Under the pieces are notes generated by a model. That model searched no databases. It was not told where the DNA came from and saw only the letters and a program-made list of their open reading frames with translations. A stretch of 39,891 nucleotides of DNA. Source: Escherichia phage HEMP4. The stretch is taken from sequence record OR424387.1; one strand, written 5' to 3'. Made by a program: the position numbers and the translations under genes. This document shows positions 2,257 through 34,513 of this stretch, piece by piece; positions within the stretch are counted from its first letter, which is position 1; every line of letters begins with the position of its first letter.

Positions 2257-2580
2257 GATGACCTCCTTTGAAGTTTTAGTTAGCAATCACCAGTTAGTAG
2301 CTGGTGATCGGGTGTCAACTAGAGCCTTCAAAGACGCTCCGGGCATATTCCCCTTTTGGGTATTGTATTACGCCTCTCCACCCGACCTTTGTACGGATGT
2401 GACTATGCCAAATTGCAGGCATAAAAAAGCCGCAAAGCTATCGGGTGCGGGTGACCGCTTTGAAGTTCTAGTGCGGTCAGTATGCGATAGCTCTGGCGGC
2501 ATTGTCAAATCATGCGCCACTGAGTCCAGCAATCTCTGCAATACCAATAGCGAGATAATCGCGATTCGTCAGGCGTGATT

Positions 2581-5057: not shown

Positions 5058-5875
5058 ACGTACATATCCTGTTTACGTGCCCAGTCAGGGCGTTTAATAA
5101 TTTCCACTCCGCCCCATTCATCGTTGATGCGGCATTCGTGATAGGTATTCAGATCCCGGCGGAACAGAGCGTGCCCGGCATCGACATCCGGCGCATCCAG
5201 CTCGAACACGCGTACCGGATACCGACCACAATCAATGCTTTCGCTCACGGCAAGAAAGAAAAAACCATGTGGCTGACCAGTAACCCTCATTGCGCCTTCG
5301 CGGTACATTGCGTCCTGCACGTGGTAGCGGAACTCCTCGATGTGGCGTGCAAAACGGTCCATATCTGTAACCTTTTTCACGTCGACGATCACGTTGTGCT
5401 CTTTCAGCCATTTGTCTGGACGAATGCGGCACAACTCACCAGTCTCTTCATCGTTCCAGTACATTGATGCTTCGCAGTAACCAGGTGCTTCCAGCATCCA
5501 GCGTGCCGCCGGGTGAGCCATTGCGCTATCACGCATCAGCTCCAGTTTCCGCCACTGCTCGGCATCAAGTACCGTAATCCCCATATCCGCCACATCACGA
5601 AGAAATGCCTCTTCGTCAGCTTTACCTTGTTTCGTCCGACGATCGAATTTCGGCGAAACAATGAAGCGTTTGTCGAACTCTCCAGGCTCCAGAAGCAGAT
5701 AGTGCAATGCGGTTCCCATATCCAGTGCAGACTTTTTCTCTTCGTCTTCTGGTGCTGCCTGAACCCATTTAAGAAGCGCCGGATTCTTGGCAACCATGTC
5801 CAGTTGCGACTTACTCACGCCGTCCCCGGCGTGGTAGTCTTCGTTGCTGATGTCGAAATAAATTCCCGGCTTCAT
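5054..5875 (-). CDS. RecE-like exonuclease (PD-(D/E)XK, exodeoxyribonuclease VIII type)
   Basis: 273 aa starting MKPGIYFDISNEDYHAGDGVSKSQLD, characteristic of phage exonuclease VIII-like proteins; paired with annealing protein. Confidence 0.75.
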   Translation of the reverse strand: MKPGIYFDISNEDYHAGDGVSKSQLDMVAKNPALLKWVQAAPEDEEKKSALDMGTALHYLLLEPGEFDKRFIVSPKFDRRTKQGKADEEAFLRDVADMGITVLDAEQWRKLELMRDSAMAHPAARWMLEAPGYCEASMYWNDEETGELCRIRPDKWLKEHNVIVDVKKVTDMDRFARHIEEFRYHVQDAMYREGAMRVTGQPHGFFFLAVSESIDCGRYPVRVFELDAPDVDAGHALFRRDLNTYHECRINDEWGGVEIIKRPDWARKQDMYV

Positions 5876-6171
5876 GCCGCGTCCCTCTGCCCATCAAGCT
5901 GATCAGCCAGATCCCAGCGGGCGATAATTGCCATTGCCTCGCGCCGGTAGGAATCCATCAGTTCTTCGAACTCAGGGCTGTCTTTAGCTGCTTCCAGCAC
6001 TTCCTGGCGAACTCCTTTGCCTGTTACAACGTCGAAAGTTGAGGCCAGTTGATGAAGCCGGATGCTCTCAATCAGTTCAACTTGTCGGTCATATAGCTGT
6101 TCTGACAGGCGGTAGTCCTTGTCGAATGCCAGCATGATTTTTTGAAGATTTTTCTGCTGATTAACGTTCAT
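5872..6171 (-). CDS. Hypothetical early protein (99 aa)
   Basis: ORF 5872..6186 with internal ATG at 6171 (MNVNQQ...); overlaps exonuclease start. Confidence 0.5.
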   Translation of the reverse strand: MNVNQQKNLQKIMLAFDKDYRLSEQLYDRQVELIESIRLHQLASTFDVVTGKGVRQEVLEAAKDSPEFEELMDSYRREAMAIIARWDLADQLDGQRDAA

Positions 6172-6479: not shown

Positions 6480-7064
6480 TTATTGTTTGCTTTTTTCGTT
6501 CTGGTTGATGACAAATTCAATGTAACTTTCGATCTTTGCTTTCTCGGTTTCGGGTAACAATGCGTAGCGCGAGCGGTCATAGTTGATAGTCGCAGGGTCG
6601 TGCGGGTGAATCAGTAATTCATAGCCGTGACGCCCGAATGCGGATGCAACATTCTCCAGGGTGGAAATGGAAACGCTGACCTCATTGTTTAACAGGCGGC
6701 TGATTGTCACCTGGGCGACGCCGGATGCGCGGTGAAGTTTTCCCTGTGTTGAAAGGTCGCGGCTTTCGCTCATCCAGCGTTCCAGGTTGTGAGCCGCCAG
6801 CTGACCAATGTCGCTTGGGCCGACAGGCTGAAAACCTTCCTGAGAAAGCGAGCGATCGATATCAAGCCAGTTACGGGGTTTATTGGCGGCAGCTTCAATT
6901 TTTCGCGCAACCTGGTCGCCGATAACCTTCTTACCAAGAGCCCAGCGGTTTACCAGATTTGCCTGAGTTCCAAGTTTTTCTGCCATCCGCGTCTGAACAC
7001 CATTGAATTCACGGTCGATCAAGTCGTTGAGATTTTGCCTGCGGACGTCCTGGATACTTTTCAT
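6480..7064 (-). CDS. Putative prophage repressor (HTH, no recognisable S24 peptidase domain)
   Basis: 194 aa, divergent from Cro-like gene with operator cluster between; N-terminal HTH-like segment TRMAEKLGTQANLVNRWALGKK; no Ala-Gly/Ser-Lys autocleavage module seen; no SD upstream of ATG. Confidence 0.55.
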   Translation of the reverse strand: MKSIQDVRRQNLNDLIDREFNGVQTRMAEKLGTQANLVNRWALGKKVIGDQVARKIEAAANKPRNWLDIDRSLSQEGFQPVGPSDIGQLAAHNLERWMSESRDLSTQGKLHRASGVAQVTISRLLNNEVSVSISTLENVASAFGRHGYELLIHPHDPATINYDRSRYALLPETEKAKIESYIEFVINQNEKSKQ

Positions 7065-13041: not shown

Positions 13042-13637
13042 TGATGCCTGCTGAACCTAAAACCTATAAACGCAAATCAACGCAATTTAAGCCACTAACA
13101 GCAATGCAGGAGGCTTATTGCCAGTCATACATCAAAACGCCTGAAAACCAGACTCAGGCAGCGATTAACGCAGGATTCTCCCCAAATACAGCGGCAGTTA
13201 AAGCCAGTGTCATGATGCGCGATGAACGCATTCAGAAACGGATTGCCGAGTTGATGGAGGAGCGCAACAAACGAATGCGCGTCAGTGCTGATTACGTTCT
13301 CATGCGCCTGGTGGAGATCGACCAGATGGACGTTATCGACATCCTCAACGACGATGGGAGCCTTAAACCAATCCGTGAGTGGCCGAAAATCTGGCGCACT
13401 ACGCTTAGTGGCTTTGATCTGTCATCGACCATCATGAACATGAACGAGGATTCGATAGAGACAATCCTCAAAAAAATTAAATGGCCTGACAAGGTGAAGA
13501 ACCTTGAGCTGATTGGTAAGCATGTTGATGTCAATGCGTTCAAAGAACGTCTGGATGTTAATGTGAATGTGACAATTGCTGATCGCATAGCGGCAGCCAG
13601 GAAGAGACTGAAAGAACGTCAGGATGGCAATCAGTGA
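13041..13637 (+). CDS. terS: Terminase small subunit
   Basis: ORF 12963..13637 trimmed to ATG 13041; TPENQTQAAINAGFSPNTAAVKASVMM matches Terminase_2-type small subunit signature; directly upstream of terL. Confidence 0.8.
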   Translation: MMPAEPKTYKRKSTQFKPLTAMQEAYCQSYIKTPENQTQAAINAGFSPNTAAVKASVMMRDERIQKRIAELMEERNKRMRVSADYVLMRLVEIDQMDVIDILNDDGSLKPIREWPKIWRTTLSGFDLSSTIMNMNEDSIETILKKIKWPDKVKNLELIGKHVDVNAFKERLDVNVNVTIADRIAAARKRLKERQDGNQ

Positions 13638-15109
13638 CAGATACAGCGTTATCTCCTGAAGAGCAGTTAATTGAGGATATTGCAGGGTTCACTCACGATC
13701 CGCTTGGCTATGCCCTCTATGCGTTCCCGTGGGGGGAAGAGGGGACTGAACTGGCACATGCTACCGGCCCACGTCAGTGGCAGGCCGATGCGTTCCGAGA
13801 GATACGTGATCACCTGCAGAATCCAGAGACGCGTTATCAGCCGCTTATGCTGGCACGTGCTTCTGGTCACGGTATTGGTAAATCCGCATTCATCTCAATG
13901 CTCATCAACTGGGGCATGTCCACTTGCGAGGATTGTAAGGTCGTGGTGACCGCCAACACCGACAACCAGCTACGAACGAAGACCTGGCCGGAAATTATCA
14001 AGTGGTCGAACCTTGCTATCACGAAAGACTGGTTTACCTGTACCGCTACCGCGATGTACAGCAATGACCCTGGGCACGACAAGCGGTGGCGGGCTGACGC
14101 AATACCCTGGTCTGAGCACAACACTGAGGCATTCGCCGGACTACACAACGAGCGCAAACGCATCATCGTGGTGTTTGATGAAGCGTCGAACATTGCGGAT
14201 CTGGTGTGGGAAGTTGCCGAGGGTGCGCTTACGGACGAAGACACTGAGATTATTTGGGTGGCGTTCGGAAACCCTACACGTAACACCGGGCGTTTTCGCG
14301 AATGTTTCCGCAAATATAAACACCGCTGGAAAACTGCGCAGATTGACAGCCGGACGGTGGAAGGCACTAACAAACAGCAGTTGCAGAAATGGGTTGATGA
14401 CTACGGGGAAGACAGCGACTTCGTTAAAATCCGTGTGCGTGGCATATTCCCTGATGCATCTGAATTGCAGTTTATCCCTACCGGTCTTACTGACGAGGCA
14501 ATGAAACGGGTGGTAACCGCTGCGCAGGTTGCACATGCTCCGGTGATAATCGGCGTTGACCCGGCATACTCCGGCGTTGATGACGCTGTGATATACCTGC
14601 GGCAGGGGCTACACAGTAAGGTGCTGTGGACTGGCAACAAGACTACCGACGATCTGATTATGGCGAAGCGTATCGCTGACTTTGAAGACCAGTATCAGGC
14701 TGACGCGGTGTTCATCGACTTCGGTTACGGAACCGGTTTGAAGTCAATCGGTGACGGCTGGGGTCGTACATGGCAACTTGTTCCGTTCGGTGGCGCGTCT
14801 ACTGACCCGCAGATGCTCAACAAGCGTGGGGAGATGTTCAACTCATGCAAGACATGGCTGAGGCTCGGTGGCATGCTGGATGACCAGGAAACAGCGGACG
14901 ACCTGTCGGCAGCAGAGTACAAAGTTCGAGTGGACGGTAAAATCGTTATCGAACCGAAGGAAGATATCAAAGAGCGACTTGGGCGTTCTCCTGGTAAAGG
15001 CGATGCGCTACTGCTGACGTTTGCGTTCCCTGTGTCGAAGCGTCTGCGAATTCCCGGTCAGCAGAACCAGCAAGGCAAGGCCATCACAGATTACGATCCC
15101 TATGCTTAA
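13634..15109 (+). CDS. terL: Terminase large subunit
   Basis: 491 aa; Walker A-like ASGHGIGKS, Walker B-like IIVVFDEAS, C-terminal nuclease-like region; overlaps terS stop. Confidence 0.85.
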   Translation: MTDTALSPEEQLIEDIAGFTHDPLGYALYAFPWGEEGTELAHATGPRQWQADAFREIRDHLQNPETRYQPLMLARASGHGIGKSAFISMLINWGMSTCEDCKVVVTANTDNQLRTKTWPEIIKWSNLAITKDWFTCTATAMYSNDPGHDKRWRADAIPWSEHNTEAFAGLHNERKRIIVVFDEASNIADLVWEVAEGALTDEDTEIIWVAFGNPTRNTGRFRECFRKYKHRWKTAQIDSRTVEGTNKQQLQKWVDDYGEDSDFVKIRVRGIFPDASELQFIPTGLTDEAMKRVVTAAQVAHAPVIIGVDPAYSGVDDAVIYLRQGLHSKVLWTGNKTTDDLIMAKRIADFEDQYQADAVFIDFGYGTGLKSIGDGWGRTWQLVPFGGASTDPQMLNKRGEMFNSCKTWLRLGGMLDDQETADDLSAAEYKVRVDGKIVIEPKEDIKERLGRSPGKGDALLLTFAFPVSKRLRIPGQQNQQGKAITDYDPYA

Positions 15110-15159
15110 TCCGCTGGTGGGGATAATGTCGTTGATATCCTCTGGTGAGGATAAAACAA

Positions 15160-15184
15160 AGCCAGCTCATAGGCTGGCTGTTTG
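15160..15184. terminator. Bidirectional hairpin terminator between convergent terL and moron gene
   Basis: AGCCAGC-tcatag-GCTGGCT; T-rich tail on minus-strand side (TTGTTTTAT), weaker on plus. Confidence 0.55.
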
Positions 15185-15195
15185 TGACATGTCAC
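15184..15195. promoter_or_regulatory. Palindrome GTGACATGTCAC, copy 2 (within 14-bp palindrome TGTGACATGTCACA)
   Basis: Perfect palindrome adjacent to terminator. Confidence 0.5.
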
Positions 15196-15199
15196 AGAG

Positions 15200-15622
15200 C
15201 TAGAAAATAATTTCATCAAATGCAGCATTTATTGCCTTTGCTTCGCTAATGGCGCCTTGTTTATCGACAATAGCTTTTTTACCAAGCACCTCGGCAAGGC
15301 ACTGTAGCTTCATGTTGTATAAGTGTTCGCTCATGTAATCATTATCACTTTTTGCTTTAGCGCAAACAGAGCGAGAAATATCAAACACATCGCCTTTTTC
15401 CATTTCAGAACGTTGTGCTGTTATCCAGTCATGGAACGTAACGCTAGTACCATGGTCTTCGCTAAGAGTTAACCCGGTCAGTCCCTCACTCTGAATTACT
15501 TCGTAATGCATTTCATTACCAGCAAAAACGCCATAAAAAACGCAGTCTTCAGCCTGAACGATACGAGAATATTTTAATGGCCATTCATTTAGATACTTAG
15601 CCAACATATCAATTGTTTTCAT
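15200..15622 (-). CDS. Hypothetical moron protein (140 aa), AT-rich
   Basis: Opposite strand to flanking structural operon; visibly AT-rich; AAGGTGAG SD; no recognisable motifs. Confidence 0.6.
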   Translation of the reverse strand: MKTIDMLAKYLNEWPLKYSRIVQAEDCVFYGVFAGNEMHYEVIQSEGLTGLTLSEDHGTSVTFHDWITAQRSEMEKGDVFDISRSVCAKAKSDNDYMSEHLYNMKLQCLAEVLGKKAIVDKQGAISEAKAINAAFDEIIF

Positions 15623-15820
15623 GATCTCACCTTAAAAAAATGCCCAGCGAACCGGGCGAACTGGAAGCAATGAGTTATGCCTTCCGTGGCTGTACGGGTT
15701 TACAGCATGAAGTCATCGCAATGGCGTCCTGCTGTAAAAAGGGCGGTGATAGTCCTTCAAGGGAAACCATCACCGCCAAGCACCTGGAACTTCTGGCATC
15801 ACGGTCCTTAGGCGTGATTC

Positions 15821-15897
15821 TGGCGCGGCATGCAGGATTCGAACCTGCGACCAACCGCTTAGAAGGCGGTTGCTCTGTCCAACTGAGCTAATGCCAC
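15821..15897 (-). tRNA. tRNA-Arg (anticodon UCU)
   Basis: Reverse complement folds as cloverleaf: acceptor GTGGCAT/ATGCCGC (one G-U), D-arm GCTC-AGTTGGACA-GAGC, anticodon stem ACCGC/GCGGT with loop CTTCTAA (anticodon TCT), T-arm GCAGG-TTCGAAT-CCTGC, discriminator G, CCA end; 77 nt. Confidence 0.85.
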
Positions 15898-16219
15898 AAC
15901 GCTGAGAGCACTTAGCCTGTTAAGGCGCCACACTTTGTCGCGGCTCCATAAATGCTCTCATCGTTGTACCCTCGTCTCTTCCGAGGTGTCACACCGAATC
16001 GCCGGGATGGTGAATCCCCGTGCGCGGAATAAAACCGCTCGACTTGCACATTCCGGCTACCTGGTTCGTTTGCCCGAGCAAGGGAGGGTGCCCCTTAAAC
16101 GTATCCAGACCGCTATCGGCGCATGTGCCATACGCCGTACTGCTCAAAATAAAAGCTCACCCCACCTGTTCAATTTAACGACAAGCCAGTCAGATTAGTA
16201 ACTGGAGTGAATTCTTTGG

Positions 16220-16234
16220 TTACCTGAAAGGTAA
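16220..16234. promoter_or_regulatory. Operator-like palindrome TTACC-N5-GGTAA upstream of portal operon
   Basis: ttacctgaaaggtaa, perfect, followed by TAATAAT. Confidence 0.5.
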
Positions 16235-16324
16235 TAATTCGTGCGTTAAATGTCAACTGTCTACGATAAATAAATCATATGTGGTTAAATTGGTAATAAT
16301 TTAATTGCGTACGGAGTCATTGAT

Positions 16325-16531
16325 ATGTGCATGGGTAGCTCACCATCAGTGCCTGCAACACCAGAAGTTCAGGCAGCACCACAGGAGCAGGATGCCGCCG
16401 TTGTTGATGCCCGCGACGAAGAAACTCGTCGCCGTCGCGCTGCTGCTGGTCGTAGTTCTACGCTGCTTACCGGTTCTCAGGGCGACACATCAACCGCTAA
16501 TACCAGCGGTAAAACGCTGCTTGGTCAGTAA
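16325..16531 (+). CDS. Hypothetical small protein (68 aa) upstream of portal
   Basis: GGAG SD 10 nt upstream; codon usage consistent with neighbours; alternative overlapping frame 16305..16544 judged less likely. Confidence 0.45.
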   Translation: MCMGSSPSVPATPEVQAAPQEQDAAVVDARDEETRRRRAAAGRSSTLLTGSQGDTSTANTSGKTLLGQ

Positions 16532-16545
16532 CCGGAGTCATTGAA

Positions 16546-18225
16546 ATGGCGGAAACAACTAAAGAGCGATTGAACAAACAGTTCGCACAACTTGAAAGCG
16601 AGCGTCAGTCGTTCGAGCCGCACTGGCGCGAGTTGAGTGATTACATCAACCCGCGTGGTTCCCGCTTTCTGACTTCTGAGGTCAACCGTAACGATCGGCG
16701 CAATACACGCATTATTGATTCGACCGGGACTATGGCGGCGCGCACTCTCGCCAGCGGCATGATGTCAGGCATCACAAGCCCCGCGCGTCCGTGGTTTCGC
16801 CTGGCTACGCCAGATCCTGAAATGATGGATTATGGCCCTGTTAAGTTGTGGCTTGAGGCAGTTCAGAACCGCATGAACGATATGTTCAATAAGTCGAATC
16901 TCTACCAGTCTCTTCCGCAGTTATACGGAAGCCTCGGCACATACAGCACTGGTGCAATGGCAGTGCTGGAGGATGACGAGGACATCATTCGCACAATGCC
17001 ATTCCCGATAGGCAGTTACTACCTGGCTAACTCACCTCGTGGCAGTGTTGACACCTGTTTTCGCAAGTTCTCTATGACTGTTCGTCAGCTTGTTCAGGAG
17101 TTCGGGCTAAATAACGTCAGCGAATCCGTAAAAAGCATGTGGGAAAGCGGCACCTACGAGAAGTGGATCGAAGTGATGCATTCGGTTTACCCGAACATTG
17201 ACCGCGATACATCGAAGCTGGATAGCAAGAACAAGCCATTCAAATCGGTTTATTACGAGGTTGGTGGAGATAACGACAAGTTGTTGCGTGAGTCCGGATT
17301 CGATGAGTTTCCAATTATGGCTCCGCGCTGGGAAGTTAACGGCGAAGATGTTTATGGATCATCATGCCCGGGTATGCTGGCGCTTGGACCTGTTAAGGCA
17401 TTGCAGCTTCTCCAGAAGCGCAAGTCGCAGTTGATTGATAAAGCCACCAATCCGCCGATGGTTGCTCCGACTTCCCTCAAGAATCAGCGCGCCTCCCTTC
17501 TTCCTGGCGACATCACGTATATCGATCAGATTACTGGTCAGGATGGCTTCAGGCCTGCTTATCTGGTTAACCCCAGTACAGCAGATTTGGTGGCAGACAT
17601 TCAGGACACTCGTCAAATCATTAACAGCGCCTACTTTGTCGATCTGTTCATGATGTTGCAGAACATCAATACCCGCTCGATGCCTGTTGAAGCGGTGATC
17701 GAAATGAAAGAAGAAAAACTTCTGATGTTGGGGCCGGTTCTGGAGCGTCTGAACGACGAATGTCTTAATCCTCTCATTGACCGCGCTTTCTCGATGATGG
17801 TGCGCAAAAACATGCTGCCGCCACCGCCTGACGCGATGGAAGGCATGCCCCTGAAGGTCGAATACATTTCCGTCATGGCTCAGGCGCAGAAGTCTATCGG
17901 CCTGTCCAGTCTGGCGTCCACGGTTAACTTCATTGGTCAACTTGCGCAAGCGAAACCAGAAGCTCTCGACAAACTCAACGTTGATCAGGCGATCGATGCA
18001 TTCGCTGATATGTCCGGAGTGTCTCCAACCGTCATTGTTCCGCAGGAACAGGTTGAGCAGGCTCGCCAGCAACGGGCACAGCAACAACAGCAGCAACAAA
18101 TGATGGCGATGGGGATGGCGGCGGCACAGGGGGCCAAGACGCTAAGCGAAGCTAAAACTTCGGATCCGAGTGTGTTGTCAGCTATGGCGAATGCAGTTAG
18201 TGGTCAGGGTGGGCAATCACAATGA
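16546..18225 (+). CDS. Portal (head-to-tail connector) protein, podovirus type
   Basis: 559 aa; position after terminase; Gln-rich C-terminus; resembles T7 gp8-class connector proteins. Confidence 0.75.
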   Translation: MAETTKERLNKQFAQLESERQSFEPHWRELSDYINPRGSRFLTSEVNRNDRRNTRIIDSTGTMAARTLASGMMSGITSPARPWFRLATPDPEMMDYGPVKLWLEAVQNRMNDMFNKSNLYQSLPQLYGSLGTYSTGAMAVLEDDEDIIRTMPFPIGSYYLANSPRGSVDTCFRKFSMTVRQLVQEFGLNNVSESVKSMWESGTYEKWIEVMHSVYPNIDRDTSKLDSKNKPFKSVYYEVGGDNDKLLRESGFDEFPIMAPRWEVNGEDVYGSSCPGMLALGPVKALQLLQKRKSQLIDKATNPPMVAPTSLKNQRASLLPGDITYIDQITGQDGFRPAYLVNPSTADLVADIQDTRQIINSAYFVDLFMMLQNINTRSMPVEAVIEMKEEKLLMLGPVLERLNDECLNPLIDRAFSMMVRKNMLPPPPDAMEGMPLKVEYISVMAQAQKSIGLSSLASTVNFIGQLAQAKPEALDKLNVDQAIDAFADMSGVSPTVIVPQEQVEQARQQRAQQQQQQQMMAMGMAAAQGAKTLSEAKTSDPSVLSAMANAVSGQGGQSQ

Positions 18226-18518
18226 CAGATTACGAAGACGATCAACTGAAAGAAGAAAACGCCCGTAAGCAACGTGACATGGCGCAGCGTGAAATTGATG
18301 ACATTCGCTTTGTCATGAGCAGTGAACAGGGGCGTCGCGTTGTCTGGTCGGTGCTGGAGAAAGGCCGTGTGTTTTCCGCTATCTCACCGATGGACGCTAT
18401 GGCAATGGCATTTAATGAGGGGCAACGCAATCTGGCGCTGGAACTGTTTCAGCGCGTTATGGCGCATTGCCCTGAACAGTATTTGAAGATGGCCAAAGAG
18501 GCCAGTGAACAGGAGTGA
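18222..18518 (+). CDS. Hypothetical protein (98 aa)
   Basis: ORF overlapping portal stop, between portal and scaffold. Confidence 0.5.
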   Translation: MTDYEDDQLKEENARKQRDMAQREIDDIRFVMSSEQGRRVVWSVLEKGRVFSAISPMDAMAMAFNEGQRNLALELFQRVMAHCPEQYLKMAKEASEQE

Positions 18519-25511: not shown

Positions 25512-28024
25512 TGCCAGTCGTACCAACAGTATCCGGACGTCAGGTTGAGAGCCGTGGAGTTCAGTCAGCAGGCTTGCAGACGTTTTCTCAGCCAGGTATT
25601 GGTGATGCTTTTGTTCGGGCAGGGGCAGAGGCTATTGATGTTTTTGGTCAGGCAAAACAGCGTGCCAATATCGCTCTGGCTCAGGAGGCATCTCTTAACC
25701 TCAGTCAGATAAGCAGTGATCTGCTGAATAATCCTGAAACAGGATTGCTTAACCTGAAAGGGAAAAATGCTATTGGAAAAGGCCATGAGTATACGCAGCA
25801 GTTTGATGCTCAGGTCGAACAACTGGCTATGTCGCTGCCGGATGAACAGGCTCGTAATGCTTTCATGCAGCAGGCGCAGCAGCAGCGCATTCAGTTCACT
25901 ACGCAGGCAGGGCGGCACGAGATAGGGCAAATAAATGCCTACGAAGAAGGCCAGTTTCAGGCTACGCTGCTGAACAATGGTAAAAATGCCGCAGCATTGT
26001 ATGGCGACAACGCCGCATACGTATTGGCTAATAAGCAAACTTTCCAGCAAATTGAGGATTACGGCATTGCACATGGCTGGAGTGACGAGCAAATCCAGGC
26101 CAAGAAAATCGAGTTTAAAGAAGCAACAGCAAAAGCAACTGCTCAAAATGCTATTGGAGCAAACTATCTTCAGGTAAGACAGCAAAACGGCGAGTTAAGC
26201 GATACTGCTGCTGGATCTCGCCGTGCTGTAGCAGATAGTGGCTCTTTCGATCGTACCCGCGGTATACGCAACAATAACCCCGGCAATCTTGAATACAGCA
26301 AAACTAATCCGTGGGTTGGGCAGACAGGTGATGATGGTCGCTTTGCTAAATTCGAAACACCTGAACACGGTATTCGTGCATTAGGGCGGAACCTGATGTC
26401 GTATCAGCGGCAGGGTATTGATACCGTCAGCGAGATAATTAATCGCTGGGCACCGCCCACTGATAAAAATGACACAATGTCGTATATCAAAGCAGTGTGC
26501 GAACAACTTGGCGTTTCTGCTGATGAGTCTCTCGATGCATCTAATCCGGATACCCTGAAGGCGCTTTGTGCAGCCATTATCCATCATGAAAACGGTAGCC
26601 AGCCATACAGTGATCAGCAGTTAACTGATGGTGTTAGTGCTGCGCTGGGGCTTTCTCAGCTACCGACAAAAAATAAACGTTATACCGGTGTAGCTTGGTT
26701 CGATGCTTTAAGTGAATCAGATCAGGCCAGCGTGTTGCGACAGACTGATGCACTAGCCAGACAACAGCAGGCTGAATATAAAACGATGCTCGACAGCCGG
26801 GTTCGCGATGCGACGGCTGCGTATATGCGTGGCGTTGAATTTCCTAACCCACCTGGTGAGGATGATTTTATTGCAGCTTATGGAGTCAGAGAAGGAAACC
26901 TGCGATATACCGAGTTTAAGAATACGCAGATCGCCGGACAGTATATAGGCTCTTTCCGCAACATGCCGACAAGCAGCATTACAGCATATGTTGAGCAATT
27001 ACGCCCGGATACTGGTGATACAGGGGAGGGGTATGCGGCACGCGCAGCTCTTTATGACAACGTTGTTTCGGCTGCAAATCAGGTGATAAAGCAGCGGCAG
27101 TCGGATCCTGTGCAGTTCTCTCTTGCCTCCGGACAGGCAAAGCCTATCGACATGAGCAATAAGGATAACTTTGGACAGAGCGTTGCCTTGCGTGCCGCTC
27201 AGGTCAGTGACCTTGCTAAGTCATATGGCACTCCACTGACGTTCTTTTCCAAAGACGAGGCCAATCAGATCGGTGTTTTCTTTCGTGATGCTCCAGTTTC
27301 CCAACAGGCAGCATATCTCGATACCATCAGGCAGAGCACTGGTGGTGGGCAGGTGTATATGTCAGCACTACAGCAGATCAGTGCCAACGCTCCATCTGCT
27401 GCCGTTGCCGGGATACTGATGGATAAGCCTGGTGGTATTTTGGCAGAAAAAAACTGGTTTAATCCGGATGTTTCCGTGTCTCCTGAAACCGCTGCGCAGA
27501 CAATTCTTGCTGGCGCGGCGGCTCGTAAAGGTACTGATGATGCGAAAGGTATTCCGATGCCTAAAGATGCTGATCTTCGCCTTGAGTTTTCTGACATGGT
27601 GAAGGATGCATTTGCTGGTGACGCTCAGGGGGCATCAATGGCATACGAGATCGCAAAGGATTATTACGCTGGTGTGATGGCGAAAAAAGGCGTGGTATCA
27701 GGCGAAATTGACAATGATGTCTGGAAACAGGCTGTTAACGTAGCTACAGGTGGCGTGCATGACTATAACGGAATGGGGAATGTCCTTTTGCCGTGGGGAA
27801 TGTCTGCAGAGCAATTCGATAAGCAGGTTAATCAGGCTTGGAATGAACAAGTTGTCGGCTCTGGGATAAAAACACCGCCTGGTCAGTATGGTTTGCAAAG
27901 TTACGGCGATAGTCAGTACCTGGTGAAACTTGGTACTGGTTATCTGCTGAAAGATGATGGTTCTCCCGTTGTTCTTAATCTGACACAGAAGCGTCAGAGA
28001 TTCTCCGGAGATATTCCGCAATGA
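25511..28024 (+). CDS. Large internal virion / ejection protein (837 aa)
   Basis: ATG after GGAGGA SD (ORF track 25436..28024 trimmed); position and size analogous to podovirus core proteins. Confidence 0.5.
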   Translation: MPVVPTVSGRQVESRGVQSAGLQTFSQPGIGDAFVRAGAEAIDVFGQAKQRANIALAQEASLNLSQISSDLLNNPETGLLNLKGKNAIGKGHEYTQQFDAQVEQLAMSLPDEQARNAFMQQAQQQRIQFTTQAGRHEIGQINAYEEGQFQATLLNNGKNAAALYGDNAAYVLANKQTFQQIEDYGIAHGWSDEQIQAKKIEFKEATAKATAQNAIGANYLQVRQQNGELSDTAAGSRRAVADSGSFDRTRGIRNNNPGNLEYSKTNPWVGQTGDDGRFAKFETPEHGIRALGRNLMSYQRQGIDTVSEIINRWAPPTDKNDTMSYIKAVCEQLGVSADESLDASNPDTLKALCAAIIHHENGSQPYSDQQLTDGVSAALGLSQLPTKNKRYTGVAWFDALSESDQASVLRQTDALARQQQAEYKTMLDSRVRDATAAYMRGVEFPNPPGEDDFIAAYGVREGNLRYTEFKNTQIAGQYIGSFRNMPTSSITAYVEQLRPDTGDTGEGYAARAALYDNVVSAANQVIKQRQSDPVQFSLASGQAKPIDMSNKDNFGQSVALRAAQVSDLAKSYGTPLTFFSKDEANQIGVFFRDAPVSQQAAYLDTIRQSTGGGQVYMSALQQISANAPSAAVAGILMDKPGGILAEKNWFNPDVSVSPETAAQTILAGAAARKGTDDAKGIPMPKDADLRLEFSDMVKDAFAGDAQGASMAYEIAKDYYAGVMAKKGVVSGEIDNDVWKQAVNVATGGVHDYNGMGNVLLPWGMSAEQFDKQVNQAWNEQVVGSGIKTPPGQYGLQSYGDSQYLVKLGTGYLLKDDGSPVVLNLTQKRQRFSGDIPQ

Positions 28025-29823
28025 GTTACTTTGGCCTTAATCCAGTAAACCAGAATCAGCAGCTTGACGAAGCAGCATCAAATCCAGCTGGCTTTAACAG
28101 CGATGTTGGTTTTTTCGACAATGCTGTAGGAGCGGCATTGTCTGGTTTGTACTCCGGGCTGGTGGCAAAGCCAGATCAGTTGCTATGGGCAGGGATGGAT
28201 AAAATCGTATCCCCGATTGCTCAGTTTGTTAACGAAAACACCTCGCTCAATGATACTTCAGTTTCATACATTGCCGAGCAGAGAAAACTAGCAGAGCAGC
28301 AGGTTAAGCGGCTGACGCCTGATGCCGCGACAACCGGAACCGCTGGGCAGGTTCTTTATGGGTTGTTCGATATGGGCGGGCAGGCTGTTGTCGGTACAAC
28401 GCTCGGTGGTCCTGTCGGAGGTGCAGCGGCGGTAACTTCGCTACAGGGTTTTTCTGAGTTTGAACGGCTGACAGCACAGGGTGTTGATTTCAGGACGGCG
28501 CAGGAAGCGGGATTAGTGCAGGGCATTACTGCTGGTGCCGGAACGCTGATCCCTATGAGCCTCGGGTTACGTGCTGGTGGTGCGCTGGCGGAAGGTGTGG
28601 CGGCTCAGCTTGCGCGGACGGGTGAGAGTTCAGTGCGACGCGCCGCAGCAACAGCAGTACGTGCAACGCCAGATATTGCCTATGCCGCAGGTACAAATAT
28701 TGCGTTCGGTATGGCACAGCGTGGGCTTACTGCAAAAACACTTCGTGATGGTGGCTATAGCGAAATGGCTAACCAGTATGATGTGTTGGATCGACAGGCA
28801 ATTGCTATTGATGCTGTTCTTGGGGTGGCGTTTGGTGGTGTCGGCAGATTTATTAACTCTCGCGGCGAGTCTACAAACGCACCAAATTTTTCACCAGTTG
28901 ATATCGATGCTGCACTGGCGGCGAATGCCGCTCATCATGCTGAAATTGATATTGCGCCCGGCGTGCCGATCAACGTGCTTTCGCGCAATTCTCACATTCA
29001 GGCTCTGCGAAAAGCTATGTCTGATGTTAGCCAGGGGAGACCTGTAGACGTTGCCAGCATTGTTGAGTCTGCATCTTTCAGTGAAATTCCTGGGCGCAAG
29101 AGTCTGCTGTCTCAGGCAGTTAATGAGGCTCTGTCATCTGTAGATGATGGAGTAACGGCGCGCGCTATAGAAAATCGGTTGCTTGAAGAACAGGCCGCGC
29201 AGCTTTTGCCGCGTGGAGATAGACAGGTTTACCAGTCTGAAATCGCTAATAGCCAACGAATTATTGAAAATCTCACTGAACAGCGTGCACAAATTCTTGC
29301 AGAAGAGCCAACCGGTAGCGGTAAAGCTTTGTCTCGTGCTCGATCAGATAAACAGGCCAGACTTCGCGATATTGATCAACGAATCCGGCAGGCACAAGAA
29401 CGCCTGGAATTTTCCCGTAACGCGTTGGCACCGCACGAGCCTGGCGGTCAGTTTTTTGAAGCTCGAGCAGAACTGGCTCGGAGACAGCAGGCAGAAAGTG
29501 AACTTAATGCTCAGGCTGTTTCATTCTATAAAACAGCAGAGGTCAGGACGCCAGACGAAGTAGCTCCTTTTGAGCCTGATAAAATATTGCAACAGGCAGA
29601 ACAAAAAATGATGTCAGATCAGGCAGGAGATATTGATCTGCGCATAGCTGAAGACTCGCTGCTTGAATCACCTGACATGATAATCACCGTGCTGGATGAT
29701 GATGGTAATCCACAATCGCGCAGTGCGCGTGAAGTACTGGATGAAGCGAACAGGGAAAGTGAGCAGGCAATACAGGATTCCAGCCTGTTTGATGTTGCTG
29801 TGGCGTGTTTCTTGAGAGGTTAA
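28021..29823 (+). CDS. Large internal virion / ejection protein (600 aa)
   Basis: Overlapping start/stop with neighbours; Ala/Gly-rich. Confidence 0.5.
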   Translation: MSYFGLNPVNQNQQLDEAASNPAGFNSDVGFFDNAVGAALSGLYSGLVAKPDQLLWAGMDKIVSPIAQFVNENTSLNDTSVSYIAEQRKLAEQQVKRLTPDAATTGTAGQVLYGLFDMGGQAVVGTTLGGPVGGAAAVTSLQGFSEFERLTAQGVDFRTAQEAGLVQGITAGAGTLIPMSLGLRAGGALAEGVAAQLARTGESSVRRAAATAVRATPDIAYAAGTNIAFGMAQRGLTAKTLRDGGYSEMANQYDVLDRQAIAIDAVLGVAFGGVGRFINSRGESTNAPNFSPVDIDAALAANAAHHAEIDIAPGVPINVLSRNSHIQALRKAMSDVSQGRPVDVASIVESASFSEIPGRKSLLSQAVNEALSSVDDGVTARAIENRLLEEQAAQLLPRGDRQVYQSEIANSQRIIENLTEQRAQILAEEPTGSGKALSRARSDKQARLRDIDQRIRQAQERLEFSRNALAPHEPGGQFFEARAELARRQQAESELNAQAVSFYKTAEVRTPDEVAPFEPDKILQQAEQKMMSDQAGDIDLRIAEDSLLESPDMIITVLDDDGNPQSRSAREVLDEANRESEQAIQDSSLFDVAVACFLRG

Positions 29824-29828
29824 ATTAA

Positions 29829-32303
29829 ATGAGACAGGAATGTATACAAGCGGTCCAGCAGGCGGCGCAGCGCACGTTAACGGCGCGAGAAATACAGAAC
29901 ATTGAAGACCGCATTTATCGAAATATGCGCTCCATTGCTCGTGATGACCCGATGTCGTGGCGACAACTTTCCGAATCAGAACGGTTGTATCGTGCAGCAC
30001 AATTGGCATCTGAAGAATTACAGCGAGAAGCGGCATTAAAGAAACGTCGTGTGGCCCTCACTATAGCCGCACGTCAGAGATTGGATAAATTTATCAATAG
30101 CTATCAAGGGGCTGATGGGAAACTTGGCGCTCTTAACCGTACTATTGCTTTTAATGCAGACGGTAAATCGAATTTCCTCTCTGTTGAATCCAGAACAAAA
30201 GCCACCCGTGATTATGCATTGAGTCAATTGCAGGAGGCATTCGAAGCAGTTGATCCTCGCTTTTTTGGTCTGTTTGAAGATGAAGCGGGCGTACGTGACC
30301 TGATATATGAAATGCGGGGGCAAAATACTGGCAATGCTAAAGCAAGAAAAGGTGCTAAGGCGTGGAGAGAAGTTACAGAGCTGCTGCGCCGCCGGTTTAA
30401 TGATGCTGGTGGGGACATTGGCTATCTCGAAAACTGGGGGATCCCTCAACATCATTCTATGGAAAAGGTTGGGGCGGTATCAAAAGATAAATGGGTTAGC
30501 GATGTTATAGGTAAGCTGGATCGCAAATATTATACCCGAGCCGATGGACAACTGATGAACGATGCCGAGTTGTCTGCATTTCTTGGAGAGGCTTATAACA
30601 CGATCGCTACTGGTGGGCTGAATAAGCTTACTGATACCGGAATGCGAATTTCCGGCGCACGTGCTAACCGTGGTAATGCATCACGACAGATACATTTCAA
30701 AGATGCAGATTCCTATCTGCAATATCAGCAACTTTATGGCGATCGCTCTCTATGGGAAATCATGGTCGGTCACCTGGAAGGTATCAGTAAAGATATTGCA
30801 CTGGTGGAAACATATGGTCCAAACCCCGATCATGTTTTCCGCTCTCTTCTTGATCAGGTGAAGGCAGAAACGGCAACAGCTAACCCGAGTAAAACCGGTA
30901 AAGTCGAGCGGCTGGCGAACAACACAGAGAATCTGTACAACTTTATTTCCGGAAAGACACAGCCTGTAGCGAATCCGCACATCGCGCGATGGTCTGACAA
31001 TATCCGCAACTGGCTGGTTGCCAGCAGACTCGGATCCGCGTTGCTGTCATCGTTCTCTGATCTTGGAACCATGTATCTGTCTGCGAAGGTTACCAACCTT
31101 CCAATGAACCAGTTATTCCGCAACCAGCTTGAAGCTATGGACCCAACGAACCGTACAGAACTTGCGCGGGCGCGCCGCGCTGGTCTGGCGATGGAATCTC
31201 TACTTGGCAGCGTTAACCGCTGGGCGATGGATAATATGGGGCCGTCTGTGTCTCGTTGGGCTGCAACGGCGGTAATGCGTGCCAGTGGGCTTACAGCATG
31301 GTCAGATGCGCACAAGCGCGCCTATGGCGTAACCATGATGGGAAGCCTGGGAGAAGTAGTGTCACGGACACCAGACCTTCGTCGCCTCGATGACTCTGAT
31401 TTTCGTATCCTGAAAAGCAAAGGGATTACTGACACAGACTGGAGCGTATGGAAGTTGGCGCAACAGGAGGACTGGGGGAACGGTAATAATACGATGCTGA
31501 CACCGGAAAGCATTATGCGTATCCCTGATTCAGCAGTTAAACATCTTGGTGAGCCTGAACGCGTGAAATTTGAGGCAATGCGTAAACTGCTCGGTGCCGT
31601 AACTGAAGAAGTTGATATGGCTGTTATTACACCGGGAGCACGTGAGCAACTGATAACCGGTTCTGGTATTCAGCGTGGAACATGGAAAGGTGAATTAACG
31701 AGAAGTGTTTTCCTGTTTAAATCGTTCCCTATCTCGGTTGTTATGCGTCACTGGTCACGCGCTATGGGTATGCCGTCTGCTGGTGGGCGTGCGGCATATA
31801 TTGCGACGTTTATTGCCAGTACGACCATTCTTGGCGCTTTGTCGCAACAACTTAACGACCTTGCGTCTGGTCGTAATCCTCGAGAGATGACAGGAGAAGA
31901 TGCTGCTAAATTTTGGCTTGGTGCTCTACTGAAAGGTGGTGGTCTTGGCCTTTACGGTGACTTTTTATTGTCAGATCACACTAGGTACGGGAGCGGCGCG
32001 CTGGCGTCGATGCTTGGCCCGGTAGCTGGTCTGGTTGATGACGTAGTGAAGATAGCTCAGGGCATACCGCTAAATGCTGTGGAAGGGAAGAGTGAGCAGA
32101 CTGGTGGTGATCTGGTGAAGCTGGGGAAAGGTTTGATGCCAGGTGCGAATCTCTGGTACTTGAAGGCGGCTCTCGATCACATGATCTTTAATCAGATGCA
32201 GGAGTATTTTTCACCAGGCTATTTGCGTAAAATGGAGCAACGTTCGAAGAAAGAGTTTAACCAGACATACTGGTGGCGACCTCAGGATGTCACTCCGCAA
32301 TAA
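29829..32303 (+). CDS. Large internal virion / ejection protein (824 aa)
   Basis: Large ORF completing structural operon. Confidence 0.5.
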   Translation: MRQECIQAVQQAAQRTLTAREIQNIEDRIYRNMRSIARDDPMSWRQLSESERLYRAAQLASEELQREAALKKRRVALTIAARQRLDKFINSYQGADGKLGALNRTIAFNADGKSNFLSVESRTKATRDYALSQLQEAFEAVDPRFFGLFEDEAGVRDLIYEMRGQNTGNAKARKGAKAWREVTELLRRRFNDAGGDIGYLENWGIPQHHSMEKVGAVSKDKWVSDVIGKLDRKYYTRADGQLMNDAELSAFLGEAYNTIATGGLNKLTDTGMRISGARANRGNASRQIHFKDADSYLQYQQLYGDRSLWEIMVGHLEGISKDIALVETYGPNPDHVFRSLLDQVKAETATANPSKTGKVERLANNTENLYNFISGKTQPVANPHIARWSDNIRNWLVASRLGSALLSSFSDLGTMYLSAKVTNLPMNQLFRNQLEAMDPTNRTELARARRAGLAMESLLGSVNRWAMDNMGPSVSRWAATAVMRASGLTAWSDAHKRAYGVTMMGSLGEVVSRTPDLRRLDDSDFRILKSKGITDTDWSVWKLAQQEDWGNGNNTMLTPESIMRIPDSAVKHLGEPERVKFEAMRKLLGAVTEEVDMAVITPGAREQLITGSGIQRGTWKGELTRSVFLFKSFPISVVMRHWSRAMGMPSAGGRAAYIATFIASTTILGALSQQLNDLASGRNPREMTGEDAAKFWLGALLKGGGLGLYGDFLLSDHTRYGSGALASMLGPVAGLVDDVVKIAQGIPLNAVEGKSEQTGGDLVKLGKGLMPGANLWYLKAALDHMIFNQMQEYFSPGYLRKMEQRSKKEFNQTYWWRPQDVTPQ

Positions 32304-33779: not shown

Positions 33780-34045
33780 GCACATCCCTGTGCCGCCGCC
33801 CGTCAGAAGAACCCAGCCTTGTCGTTGATGTACTCCGCGTGGGTCTGGATATCACGCAGGCATTTGCTCACACCGACGATGTAGCAGAACATGGTGGTCA
33901 GCTCCGCCGCCGCGCCCGATACGTCGTGCCCGTCTTCCTGTAACTGGTTCAGCAGATTCATCAGCAGTGAGTTCTCCGTCAGGCCGAGAACACCAGACGG
34001 CGAATGAATCAGGCTACGGTAGCCGGGCTTCAGTGGGGCACTGTA
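33780..34045. repeat. Internal direct repeat copy B (matches 1578..1842)
   Basis: Same as copy A. Confidence 0.85.
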
Positions 34046-34513
34046 GGTTTTGTTCTCTATCTTCATCGCCTGCATTACTGCTGACGCCGTGGCGTTGGCT
34101 ACCTGGTCGGCAACCATCTTTATGCGTTCTTCCTGCGGGAGCGAGTTTTTAATGTAACTTCCGGTGCGGCGGATCTGAGGAAGAACCTCACCTGTAACCC
34201 ATTTACGAAAGCGGTAGGGGATAGTGCCTGGTGTCACTGCGTCGCGGCAGCGGAGGATCAGTGTGTAGAGGCCTGACTCGGAGATGATGTTGATCTCTTT
34301 TACTCGGCTGTCAAAAATTGCACGATGTTCATGCCCTATGTTGAACATAGACCTTTCATCATCATCCAGTTTTTCAAGTGCTTGGGTGACGTTTTGGATG
34401 CGCAGCGCACTACAAACGTCTTGGGCTACAAACCATGGTTGGCCATCGATAATGATGGAACGGATAGGGTTAACAGATTCAAATTTGAAGATGGCAGTTT
34501 GAGCATTAGCCAT
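33803..34513 (-). CDS. Bro-N domain antirepressor-like protein with shared C-terminal domain
   Basis: ATG at 34513 (ORF track GTG 34528); N-terminal AIFKFESVNPIRSIIIDGQPWFVAQDVCSAL is classic Bro-N; C-terminal 80 aa identical to C-terminus of 1600..2256 gene. Confidence 0.75.
   Translation of the reverse strand: MANAQTAIFKFESVNPIRSIIIDGQPWFVAQDVCSALRIQNVTQALEKLDDDERSMFNIGHEHRAIFDSRVKEINIISESGLYTLILRCRDAVTPGTIPYRFRKWVTGEVLPQIRRTGSYIKNSLPQEERIKMVADQVANATASAVMQAMKIENKTYSAPLKPGYRSLIHSPSGVLGLTENSLLMNLLNQLQEDGHDVSGAAAELTTMFCYIVGVSKCLRDIQTHAEYINDKAGFF

Follow-up and report, generated by a model that had tools for sequence, protein, structure and literature searches.

We identified, between the terminase and portal genes of a phiV10/epsilon15-type (Uetakevirus) prophage, a minus-strand region that opens with a putative promoter and a structured leader RNA and closes with a sharply bounded single-gene exchange slot. 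The element in the window, the whole 39,891-nucleotide stretch of Escherichia phage HEMP4 that was analysed (OR424387.1), is 96–98% identical to phages PAS61, ZX5, phiv142-3 and phiV10. As the first-pass annotation had stated, a tRNA-Arg gene and a 140-aa ORF both lie on the minus strand here and split the plus-strand genes, with terL at 13634–15109 and the portal operon starting at 16325. Comparison among relatives established the parts of the region, their conservation and their order on the minus strand, namely putative promoter region with operator, leader RNA, tRNA, terminator, hairpin with ribosome-binding site, cargo gene and a hairpin shared with terL. With the functions proposed below, the whole may constitute an accessory antisense transcription unit of the Uetakevirus prophage, a reading that we hold with about even confidence. 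Phage tRNA-Arg genes and morons were already known, and the HEMP4-type tRNA is annotated in several relatives; the definition of the exchange slot and an unannotated leader RNA family are added here. The features are as follows.

15160–15179, shared by terL (plus) and the cargo gene (minus): 3'-end hairpin AGCCAGC-TCATAG-GCTGGCT, the left edge of the exchangeable cassette.
15200–15622, minus: cargo gene, encoding the 140-aa protein of phrog_4846, from the ORF call and a family match.
15626–15657, minus: landing pad, made of a hairpin, seven U and a Shine-Dalgarno sequence directly 5' of the ATG, from a terminator scan and conservation.
15742–15777, minus: intrinsic terminator 3' of the tRNA, a 14-bp stem followed by CUUUUU, from the terminator scan.
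15821–15897, minus: tRNA-Arg(UCU), 77 nt with encoded CCA, from ARAGORN and Rfam.
15947–16145, minus: structured non-coding leader RNA of about 199 nt with 7 helices, from covariation and cross-genus conservation.
16220–16256, minus: putative promoter/operator, from conservation of a palindrome and of TTGACA, the promoter role being presumed.

The slot was surveyed in 80 close relatives; two loci carry two genes, so that the categories total 82. The results revealed an Acb4-like gene (PF13876) in 39 relatives, the 140-aa family in 18, a transmembrane/coiled-coil protein in 12, p113 in 4, p115 in 2, the C-terminal module only in 2, and an empty slot in 5 (phiv142-3 and four other loci). The flanks common to the slot variants end at 15185–15194 and 15628–15655 in nearly all, and the alignments indicate that recombination at two conserved flanks swaps whole genes in the slot. 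Prophages of Salmonella, Klebsiella, Enterobacter and Citrobacter also carry the 140-aa family in this slot, and in those of Klebsiella and Enterobacter a PF13876 gene follows the 140-aa homolog in tandem. Acb4 anti-CBASS sponges make up PF13876 (bioRxiv 10.1101/2024.12.30.630793, 10.1101/2025.07.12.664507); phiV10p03 matches this family at 6e-35 and matches Acb4 in the PDB (9E4W) at E = 0.011. The transmembrane/coiled-coil occupants are 246–282 aa long, with N-terminal membrane helices plus a coiled coil, and a search of PADLOC and Pfam with a 272-aa occupant returned coiled-coil noise only; p113 and p115 fall in PHROGs of unknown function. Since the commonest occupant belongs to a validated anti-CBASS family, the alternative occupants become candidate new anti-defence or defence proteins, and this slot in a common E. 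coli/Salmonella prophage group offers four or five uncharacterised ones, the 140-aa family included, as concrete candidates.

The survey also revises how the cargo had been described. It had been called a moron, and it is indeed extra cargo that is absent or replaced in relatives; rather than a classic self-contained moron, however, it would be a cassette held at one fixed site of expression, inside a longer transcription unit that begins with the conserved leader RNA. The tRNA and the cargo gene had been taken for one insertion, but each occurs without the other.

The 140-aa ORF itself was borne out, with an ATG start at 15200–15622 on the minus strand and AAGGTGAG placed 3 nt 5' of the ATG, and so was its AT-richness (GC 0.39 for the ORF and 0.385–0.42 across it, versus 0.52–0.57 in terL and the portal gene). 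The protein matched the small family phrog_4846 at E = 1.8e-88, and its homologs (n = 80) are all from Enterobacteriaceae, in a prophage-confined family. An exhaustive profile search of 1.84 billion proteins yielded 32 representatives of the family, none informative, and two long matches, P0105 and P0108, look spurious. Full-length homologs at 40–100% identity were found in five genera with 16 invariant residues, and dN/dS was 0.19–0.29, which marks the cargo as a genuine gene that is under purifying selection. Mosaicism at the level of domains was seen in L059, where dS was 0.02 in the N-domain versus 1.35 in the C-domain. The predicted architecture comprises a small beta domain (residues 1–75), a disordered linker (81–90) and a helical hairpin (93–137), in an AF2 model with a mean pLDDT of 81.

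The earlier description of the protein's function as unrecognised holds, with no known domain or fold found. Pfam, NCBIfam and PADLOC gave zero matches; in PADLOC-DB 2.0, 0 defence-system families matched at E up to 1, and no anti-defence model matched either. Pfam at E up to 5 gave no match for the protein and 26 aligned relatives (27 sequences) and nothing useful for eight fused or variant members of the family. A PDB profile search returned only noise at E = 2, Foldseek with the model found none below E = 1 in the PDB, and its matches in BFVD were uncharacterised phage proteins only, aligned through the N-terminal domain. The missing domain, together with a slot that may be empty, could suggest a chance or decaying frame without function. 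The conservation and dN/dS refute that reading, and the homologs in five genera, the invariant residues and the confident predicted fold leave it extremely improbable.

Upstream of the leader RNA, we found a candidate promoter consisting of TTGACA (16256–16251), a 17-nt spacer and TACCTT, overlapped by the palindrome TTACC-N5-GGTAA (16220–16234). This palindrome occurs in 14 copies in the window versus 0.63 expected, two of them between an HTH repressor ORF (6480–7064) and its divergent neighbour. Its half-sites and the TTGACA are invariant in five genera, and the epsilon15 record annotates repressor and IHF sites at the corresponding place; as a −10 element, TACCTT makes a weak candidate that did not satisfy the promoter scan. 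From this arrangement, 16220–16256 would be the promoter of the minus-strand unit, with the operator acting in the same direction; alternatively, the operator at 16220–16234 could control the plus-strand portal operon instead, or also. Since a repressor-operator motif lies upstream of the leader RNA, we infer that the minus-strand unit as a whole is early and repressor-controlled. The prophage repressor would keep it silent, and transcription would come on early once the phage infects or is induced.

Between the tRNA and the ORF lie two terminator-like hairpins, 15777–15742 and 15657–15642, that the first-pass annotation had missed; both stand upstream of the cargo gene. The first keeps its position across genera, with differing stem sequences. 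The second forms part of the landing pad, in which the hairpin GCCCGGTTCGCTGGGC (15657–15642), terminator-like on the minus strand in the terminator scan, is followed by seven U (15640–15634) and the Shine-Dalgarno sequence (15633–15626). Conservation of the landing pad extends over E. coli, Enterobacter, Salmonella and phage Tyrion. Every cargo type has it on the 5' side, and where the slot is empty an 8-codon mini-ORF follows it. At the other end of the cargo gene, the hairpin at 15160–15179 had been described as a bidirectional terminator. The scan supported it on the minus strand and failed it on the plus strand, yet the phiV10 GenBank record annotates a plus-strand terminator. Scanning (for the sigma-70 consensus only) and manual inspection found no promoter for the cargo gene in 15623–15741 and no convincing one directly upstream of the tRNA.

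These elements bear on whether the cargo serves the lysogen. It could be a classic moron expressed in the lysogen from its own weak or unconventional promoter and active in superinfection exclusion, abortive infection or lysogenic conversion: the gene is antisense and low in GC, with a strong Shine-Dalgarno sequence and its own 3' terminator, its family comes almost entirely from prophages in bacterial genomes, and the 246–282-aa alternatives look typical of exclusion or Abi proteins in their membrane helices and coiled coil. Yet the interval between the tRNA terminator and the ORF lacks a sigma-70-like promoter, a terminator hairpin and U7 run abut the Shine-Dalgarno sequence, the upstream promoter region bears a repressor operator, PADLOC gave no match and the commonest gene in the slot is of an anti-defence family, so that we consider lysogen expression rather unlikely. 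Of the roles suggested at first, lysogenic conversion is disfavoured because the ORF has no adjacent promoter, two terminators lie upstream and the only upstream promoter region carries the operator motif. The defence or anti-defence role gains indirect support from the frequency of Acb4 in the slot and from the tandem arrangement with PF13876. The cargo is thus probably a counter-defence protein and not a lysogenic-conversion factor; this positional argument is weak, as the slot also holds membrane/coiled-coil proteins with a closer resemblance to exclusion or abortive-infection factors. Taking the place that an Acb4-family anti-CBASS sponge has in other relatives, the 140-aa product would be a small, acidic, probably oligomeric counter-defence or host-takeover protein.

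The leader RNA lies inside the 430-nt 'gap' adjoining the tRNA, where a conserved structured RNA had been overlooked. A protein-coding gap was ruled out because, in the cross-genus comparison, the indels in this conserved stretch are not multiples of three. The RNA contains an invariant GGUAGCCGGAAUGUGCAAG stretch and a 3' hairpin, CCUCG-GAAGAGA-CGAGG. Its structure was derived with RNAalifold, and the resulting covariance model R1 (187 positions, 7 helices) scored it at 179.6 bits. In an alignment fitted to the model, 95.9% of cells pair versus 31–41% with the partners slid, 16 pairs show compensatory changes and 0/500 shuffles reach the observed values; on the plus strand the paired fraction was 81.9%, versus the 95.9% on the minus strand. 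Single-sequence folding was no more stable than shuffled controls on either strand. The comparative results indicate a covariation-supported fold on the minus strand. Rfam 15 gave no match to it in the window at the gathering score; at E up to 5, 15100–16600 contained only the tRNA and weak chance matches, and four related loci gave no match to the leader RNA. Identity with svsR was ruled out (77 nt, inside cI), as was identity with AgvB, AsxR, Esr41 or STnc100, all of which are in Rfam; its invariant 15-mer occurs in none of the papers that were searched.

The leader RNA was present in 34% of complete E. coli genomes. This RNA family, unannotated until now and supported by covariation, is thus found in about one third of them; roughly 1,800 E. 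coli genomes, and other Enterobacterales, carry it. Only a single copy per genome was found. Its orientation was the same at all 10 Uetakevirus-like loci taken from other genera, antisense to the portal gene and directed towards the slot. In two lambdoid phages, a predicted PL-type promoter overlapping an OL-type operator lies 40–110 nt upstream of it (mEp390: promoter 1739→1710, leader RNA 1662→1482; BUCT708: promoter 1814→1786, leader RNA 1669→1494), and in mEp460 it lies just downstream (2705→2508) of an OL-type operator (2779–2797). It also occurs inside the C1-controlled ban operon of P1, and it neighbours tRNAs in P1, P1-like plasmids, HEMP4 and Phytobacter prophages.

By analogy with put and nut sites, and purely so, we propose that the leader RNA could act by processive antitermination, carrying RNA polymerase past both terminators and into the cargo gene that lacks a promoter. 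The boxB-like 3' hairpin shows covariation, and similar hairpins are repeated in BUCT708; a boxA-like GCUCU motif was seen solely on the opposite strand. Against antitermination count the lack of sequence similarity to the HK022 putL region, a length about three times that of put, the single copy found per genome and the finding of no terminator between the leader RNA and ban in P1. The RNA might instead act in trans, as an sRNA or decoy made early, or in processing, either by stabilising the transcript as its 5' leader or by offering RNase III or RNase E a platform from which tRNA and cargo mRNA are cut free. For this speak an RNase III processing site annotated in the leader RNA region of the epsilon15 record, the adjoining tRNAs in all four settings named above, which are themselves processing signals, and the lack of a terminator after the leader RNA in P1 or mEp460. 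It is countered by the position of the leader RNA after early repressor-controlled promoters or operators of three unrelated immunity types, which matches that of nutL/putL, by the conserved terminators between it and a promoterless gene in Uetakevirus-like loci, and by a near-identical hairpin and U7 run that follow it in BUCT708; on balance we regard the trans-acting or processing role as possible but somewhat unlikely. Extending the antitermination proposal, the leader RNA may define a new, widespread class of cis-acting early leader, possibly a processive antiterminator, common to Uetakeviruses, lambdoid phages and P1-like plasmid prophages, which would license read-through into an exchangeable counter-defence cassette, with the 140-aa protein as a new anti-defence family. 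We offer this combination tentatively, as fairly improbable in its entirety.

The tRNA-Arg was confirmed by ARAGORN (anticodon TCT, 15821–15897, minus strand) and by Rfam RF00005 (69.4 bits versus a gathering score of 29, over the full-length model). ArgRS identity elements are A20, C35 and U36/G36. By inspection the gene has a 7-bp acceptor stem, A20 in the D-loop AGUUGGACA, C35, U36, G73 and the encoded CCA, and so carries the ArgRS identity elements and an intact acceptor end. Its described closeness to host argU also stood: 65/77 positions match what we take to be the argU sequence, with identical D and T arms and 12 differences in the acceptor and anticodon stems. A chromosomal tRNA-Arg 87.3% identical over positions 7–77 is present in every complete E. 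coli genome, and copies of the phage tRNA at least 95% identical were counted in about 500 complete-genome records of E. coli. The records of phiv142-3, O157 typing phages 9 and 10, and SPN9TCW already list the gene as tRNA-Arg. An attachment-site remnant was ruled out because the gene is complete and far from the integrase.

E. coli uses AGA at about 2 per 1000 codons. In the phage ORFs we counted 6.5 per 1000, approximately a three-fold enrichment over that host figure, concentrated in late genes (13 AGA in the 729-aa ORF at 35282–37471, and 7 each in the ORFs at 28021–29823 and 29829–32303). The tRNA would thereby add AGA-decoding capacity for AGA-rich late genes such as those for the tailspike and tail/injection proteins; it does not serve the cargo gene, because that gene has 0 AGA/AGG codons. 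What stands at the tRNA position varies. E. coli phages and some of Salmonella have tRNA-Arg there, whereas Klebsiella has a tRNA-like piece of non-canonical form (its folding was uninformative); Phytobacter has tRNA-Ile(AAU) downstream of the leader RNA, and the Enterobacter and Salmonella loci L005 and L010 lack a tRNA. This variability, and the neighbouring slot with its anti-defence genes, would also suit a tRNA that is mainly a counter-defence spare, replacing or decoying host tRNA-Arg cut or depleted by anticodon nucleases; D and T arms equal to those of argU with 12 stem differences is a pattern to be expected if ArgRS recognition had been kept and a nuclease escaped. However, the AGA enrichment in late genes suffices to explain retention of the tRNA without such a role, no nuclease specific for tRNA-Arg(UCU) was identified in this analysis and relatives without any tRNA exist, which makes the counter-defence spare distinctly unlikely.

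Compared with known systems, the tRNA resembles the rare-codon tRNAs of Stx phages and P1, as well as argU, in its UCU anticodon reading the rare AGA and in the AGA-rich late genes. It has the D and T arms of argU on differing acceptor and anticodon stems, and unlike the other phage tRNAs it is embedded in a repressor-linked antisense unit beside a cargo slot. The 140-aa protein shares with Acb4 (PF13876; SPO1 Acb4, PDB 9E4W) a small size, restriction to phages and the same slot (39/80 for Acb4, phiV10 gp03 and the epsilon15 homolog included), but it has neither sequence nor fold similarity to Acb4 and falls outside that family. Like HK97/lambda morons and the defence hotspots of P2- and P4-like elements, the cargo gene is present or absent among relatives, has a deviating base composition, runs antisense to the conserved morphogenesis genes on either side and is swapped for unrelated genes at a fixed locus. 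In contrast to them, the cassette is essentially the ORF alone, held between a conserved hairpin-U7-Shine-Dalgarno pad and a conserved 3' hairpin with no promoter of its own found, and a leader RNA, a tRNA and two terminators all precede it. As for HK022 put and lambda nut, the leader RNA is likewise structured and, in lambdoid phages, closely follows PL-type promoters or operators; its 3' hairpin with a purine-rich loop resembles boxB, and in HEMP4 terminators separate it from the cargo gene. The HK022 nun-cI region (putL) showed no similarity to it beyond a 13-nt chance match inside nun. Unlike HK022 put, with two stems in about 70 nt, the leader RNA has seven helices in about 200 nt, approximately three times the length, is present in a single copy and also occurs in P1 and podoviruses; if it controls transcription elongation, RNA-based antitermination would extend well beyond HK022.

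The window is a complete phiV10/epsilon15-type prophage of the genus Uetakevirus, and positions 13600-18300 are 96-98% identical to Escherichia phages vB_EcoP_PAS61, ZX5, phiv142-3 and phiV10. The records of those phages carry terS-terL on one side of the locus and a 68-aa gene with the portal gene on the other. The first-pass annotation had placed a tRNA-Arg(UCU) and a 140-aa ORF between terminase and portal, and ARAGORN, Rfam and ORF calling located both exactly there.

Features of the locus
13634-15109, plus strand: terL (ORF call)
15200-15622, minus strand: cargo ORF, 140 aa (ORF call)
15657-15642, minus strand: terminator 2, GCCCGGTTCGCTGGGC plus seven U, abutting the Shine-Dalgarno sequence (SD) (scan)
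15777-15742, minus strand: terminator 1, 14-bp stem plus CUUUUU (scan)
15821-15897, minus strand: tRNA-Arg(TCT), the sole tRNA called in the window (ARAGORN)
16325-16531, plus strand: 68-aa gene (ORF call)
16546-18225, plus strand: portal gene (ORF call)

Along the minus strand, a leader RNA, the tRNA, two terminators and an exchangeable cargo gene follow one another. The best reading of this anatomy is an early, repressor-controlled accessory unit, which would be read in that order. As originally stated, the observation is an unexceptional example of familiar kinds of element; worth pursuing are the unannotated RNA family and the slot (the exchangeable site between terL and the tRNA), one occupant of which is of the Acb4 family.

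Alignment of 15623-16330 with Enterobacter, Klebsiella, Salmonella and phage Tyrion revealed blocks whose conservation exceeds that of the adjacent genes, with indels that were not multiples of three. A BLAST search with the core (15940-16138) returned matches of about 80% identity, almost always unannotated, in quite different phages: the lambdoids mEp460, mEp390, Stx2c phages, Ayreon and 2H10; P1, P7, D6, SJ46 and RCS47; and Klebsiella phage SopranoGao and Stenotrophomonas phage BUCT708. Of 5426 complete E. coli genomes, 1843 carried the element, with copies on chromosomes as well as P1-like plasmids; none annotated it. RNAalifold predicted seven helices from ten diverse copies, and a covariance model found 36 copies in the collected loci, including about 20 other Enterobacterales species. 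In the alignment fitted to the model, 95.9% of cells were paired, compared with 31-41% when partners were slid; compensatory changes occurred in 16 of 36 pairs, and none of 500 shuffles reached the observed values. In a strand test on 185 G·U cells, pairing fell from 95.9% to 81.9% on the opposite strand, which fixes the leader RNA on the minus strand (16145-15947), ending 50 nt upstream of the tRNA. Judged from these alignments, the apparent gap beside the tRNA is a structured RNA. Rfam 15 gave no match to it, and its invariant 15-mer was not found in the literature searched.

In mEp390 and BUCT708, a predicted PL-type promoter precedes the start of the leader RNA by 40-110 nt and overlaps operator repeats that also occur in the cI-cro region; in mEp460 the RNA starts just downstream of an operator repeat of the cI-cro-shared type, and P1 has it within the C1-controlled ban operon, flanked by trnI and ban. 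Ten Uetakevirus-like loci of other genera always carried it antisense to the portal gene and directed at the slot. The window itself holds 14 copies of the palindrome TTACC-N5-GGTAA, compared with 0.63 expected (261, 6346, 6408, 7120, 7168, 7505, 9407, 9469, 13009, 13027, 16220, 33722, 34783 and 35163), dispersed ahead of many operons, terS and the 729-aa gene among them. Two copies lie between the HTH (Cro/C1-type) ORF 6480-7064 (minus strand) and its divergent neighbour, as expected of immunity operators, and the palindrome is probably the operator of this repressor. The copy at 16220-16234 lies between TTGACA (16256-16251, minus strand) and the leader RNA start; both motifs were invariant in five genera, and the corresponding position of the epsilon15 record carries repressor and IHF site annotations. 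We infer a putative repressor-controlled minus-strand promoter, TTGACA-17-TACCTT, with a weak -10, and expression of the accessory unit would be early. The divergent portal operon may be under this operator as well.

A scan for sigma-70 consensus promoters found none between the tRNA and the cargo ORF; given the two terminators, a transcript reaching this ORF would therefore have to originate ahead of the tRNA and read through both. Both terminators were conserved in position across genera, the first with stem sequences differing by genus, and in BUCT708 a terminator nearly identical to the window's hairpin-U7 comes after the leader RNA. The leader RNA may be an element that promotes read-through. 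Directly upstream of the cargo ATG lies AAGGTGAG.

The cargo ORF had a GC content of 0.39 compared with 0.52-0.57 in its flanks, in line with its earlier description as AT-rich. Its protein matched PHROG 4846, of unknown function, end to end (1.8e-88), with no match in Pfam, NCBIfam or PADLOC. A word-indexed search returned 80 relatives, all unnamed, from E. coli, Citrobacter, Salmonella, Enterobacter and Klebsiella, and an exhaustive profile search found only 32 among 1.84 billion representatives, indicating a narrow family. The family alignment showed an N-terminal module of about 75 residues (MKTxxxLAKYLxxWP...FYG...LAG...DD.G..VT), a variable linker and a C-terminal module of about 45 residues (Y..KLQCL...AINAAFD.I). 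Between the window copy and locus L059, dS was 0.02 in the N-domain and 1.35 in the C-domain; the C-terminal module also occurred as standalone 64-aa ORFs (L022, L067) and fused to other N-termini. The two modules recombine independently. An AlphaFold2 model (mean pLDDT 81) joined a small alpha/beta domain to a helical hairpin through a disordered linker; searches of the PDB by sequence and fold found no similar solved structure, and the sole fold neighbours were uncharacterised phage proteins. The ORF proved conserved in related phages, and its overall dN/dS of 0.19-0.29 marks it as a functional gene.

We collected 80 IMG/VR loci with TerL at least 99% identical, added L001-L004 from phage and E. 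coli genome searches, and compared the DNA from the terL stop codon to the tRNA in the 80 relatives with both anchors. In nearly all, the shared flanks ended at about 15185-15194 and 15628-15655, so the exchanged unit is essentially the ORF alone.

Slot occupants in 80 relatives
PF13876-type gene: 38, plus 1 in tandem with the membrane protein
140-aa cargo family: 17, plus 1 in tandem with p113
246-282-aa protein with membrane helices and coiled coil: 11; 12 with the PF13876 tandem locus
110-aa protein (p113): 3; 4 with the cargo-family tandem locus
115-aa protein (p115): 2
C-terminal module alone: 2
Empty: 5

The empty slot retains the SD, the ATG and an 8-codon mini-ORF. Read-through translations such as ...GHFFKVKIM... 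precede three different cargo types, which thus all use one hairpin-U7-SD pad. The cargo family occupied the same site in Salmonella, Klebsiella, Enterobacter and Citrobacter prophages, and in those of Klebsiella and Enterobacter a PF13876 gene directly followed it. phiV10 gp03 matched PF13876 (6e-35) and PDB 9E4W (E=0.011). PF13876 is the Acb4 family, whose SPO1 member acts as a sponge that takes up cyclic-nucleotide CBASS signals and restores phage growth (bioRxiv 10.1101/2024.12.30.630793; 10.1101/2025.07.12.664507). The cargo had been proposed to serve lysogenic conversion or defense/anti-defense; the slot's PF13876/Acb4 occupants suggest a counter-defence role for the 140-aa protein, and lysogenic conversion is less likely. 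In the E. coli ECCNB12-2 prophage, the slot held a 272-aa protein (L004 3300-4118, phrog_4780) with N-terminal membrane helices and a long coiled coil; the 3' end of its gene overlaps terL, which is annotated there as frameshifted. In the equivalent slot of phage Tyrion, an Rfam int-alpA RNA motif (L093 3202-3266; 44 bits, gathering 35.8) lies between two slot genes.

The tRNA scored 69.4 bits with the Rfam model. It is 77 nt long, with encoded CCA and, by inspection, A20, C35, U36 and G73. The claimed likeness to host argU held: compared with the argU sequence, 65 of 77 positions were the same and the D and T arms identical. All complete E. coli genomes had a tRNA-Arg on the chromosome that was 87.3% identical over positions 7-77, and about 500 complete-genome records held a copy at least 95% identical, making the prophage tRNA common. 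Across a crude set of phage ORFs, some spurious, AGA and AGG occurred at 6.5 and 5.6 per 1000 codons; E. coli uses AGA at about 2 per 1000. AGA occurred 13 times in the 729-aa ORF 35282-37471, 7 times each in ORFs 28021-29823 and 29829-32303, and never in the cargo gene. From this usage, the simplest role of the tRNA would be codon supplementation for late genes. The 729-aa ORF (GC 0.40) is preceded by an operator copy and gave no Pfam match; by position, it is probably an exchangeable tailspike and the main consumer of the tRNA.

The tRNA occurs independently of the cargo gene: phiv142-3 carries it beside an empty slot, and in Enterobacter, Klebsiella and Salmonella loci with the cargo gene neither ARAGORN nor Rfam recognised a tRNA. 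At the tRNA position of one Klebsiella prophage (L007, about 5780-5890), a tRNA-like piece called by neither program has a perfect 7-bp acceptor stem, D arm, CCA and the T arm GCCGGTTCGAATCCGGC, with about 60 nt replacing the normal anticodon arm; its 3' trailer and terminator are those behind the E. coli tRNA-Arg. In Phytobacter ursingii (L105 2210-2288, L128 1186-1264), the leader RNA is followed, about 420 nt further down its own strand, by a tRNA-Ile whose anticodon, AAT, is unusual.

Close to the prophage's integrase end, 2298-2387 (minus strand) matched Rfam sRNA-Xcc1 (62.9 bits, gathering 53). On the minus strand at 34562-34746, Rfam matches to C4 antisense RNA (66 bits) and isrK (67 bits) adjoin each other, with a Bro-N antirepressor-like ORF (33803-34528) downstream; this region is a second immunity region of the P1/P7 immI type, here in a podovirus prophage. 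The PL transcript of BUCT708 (L098 1160-1739) carries at least 5 hairpins of the form UGACA-stem-GAAAGA-stem, which look like lambda boxB and like the hairpin at the leader RNA's 3' end. The dispersed palindromes of the window resemble the dispersed C1 operators of P1.
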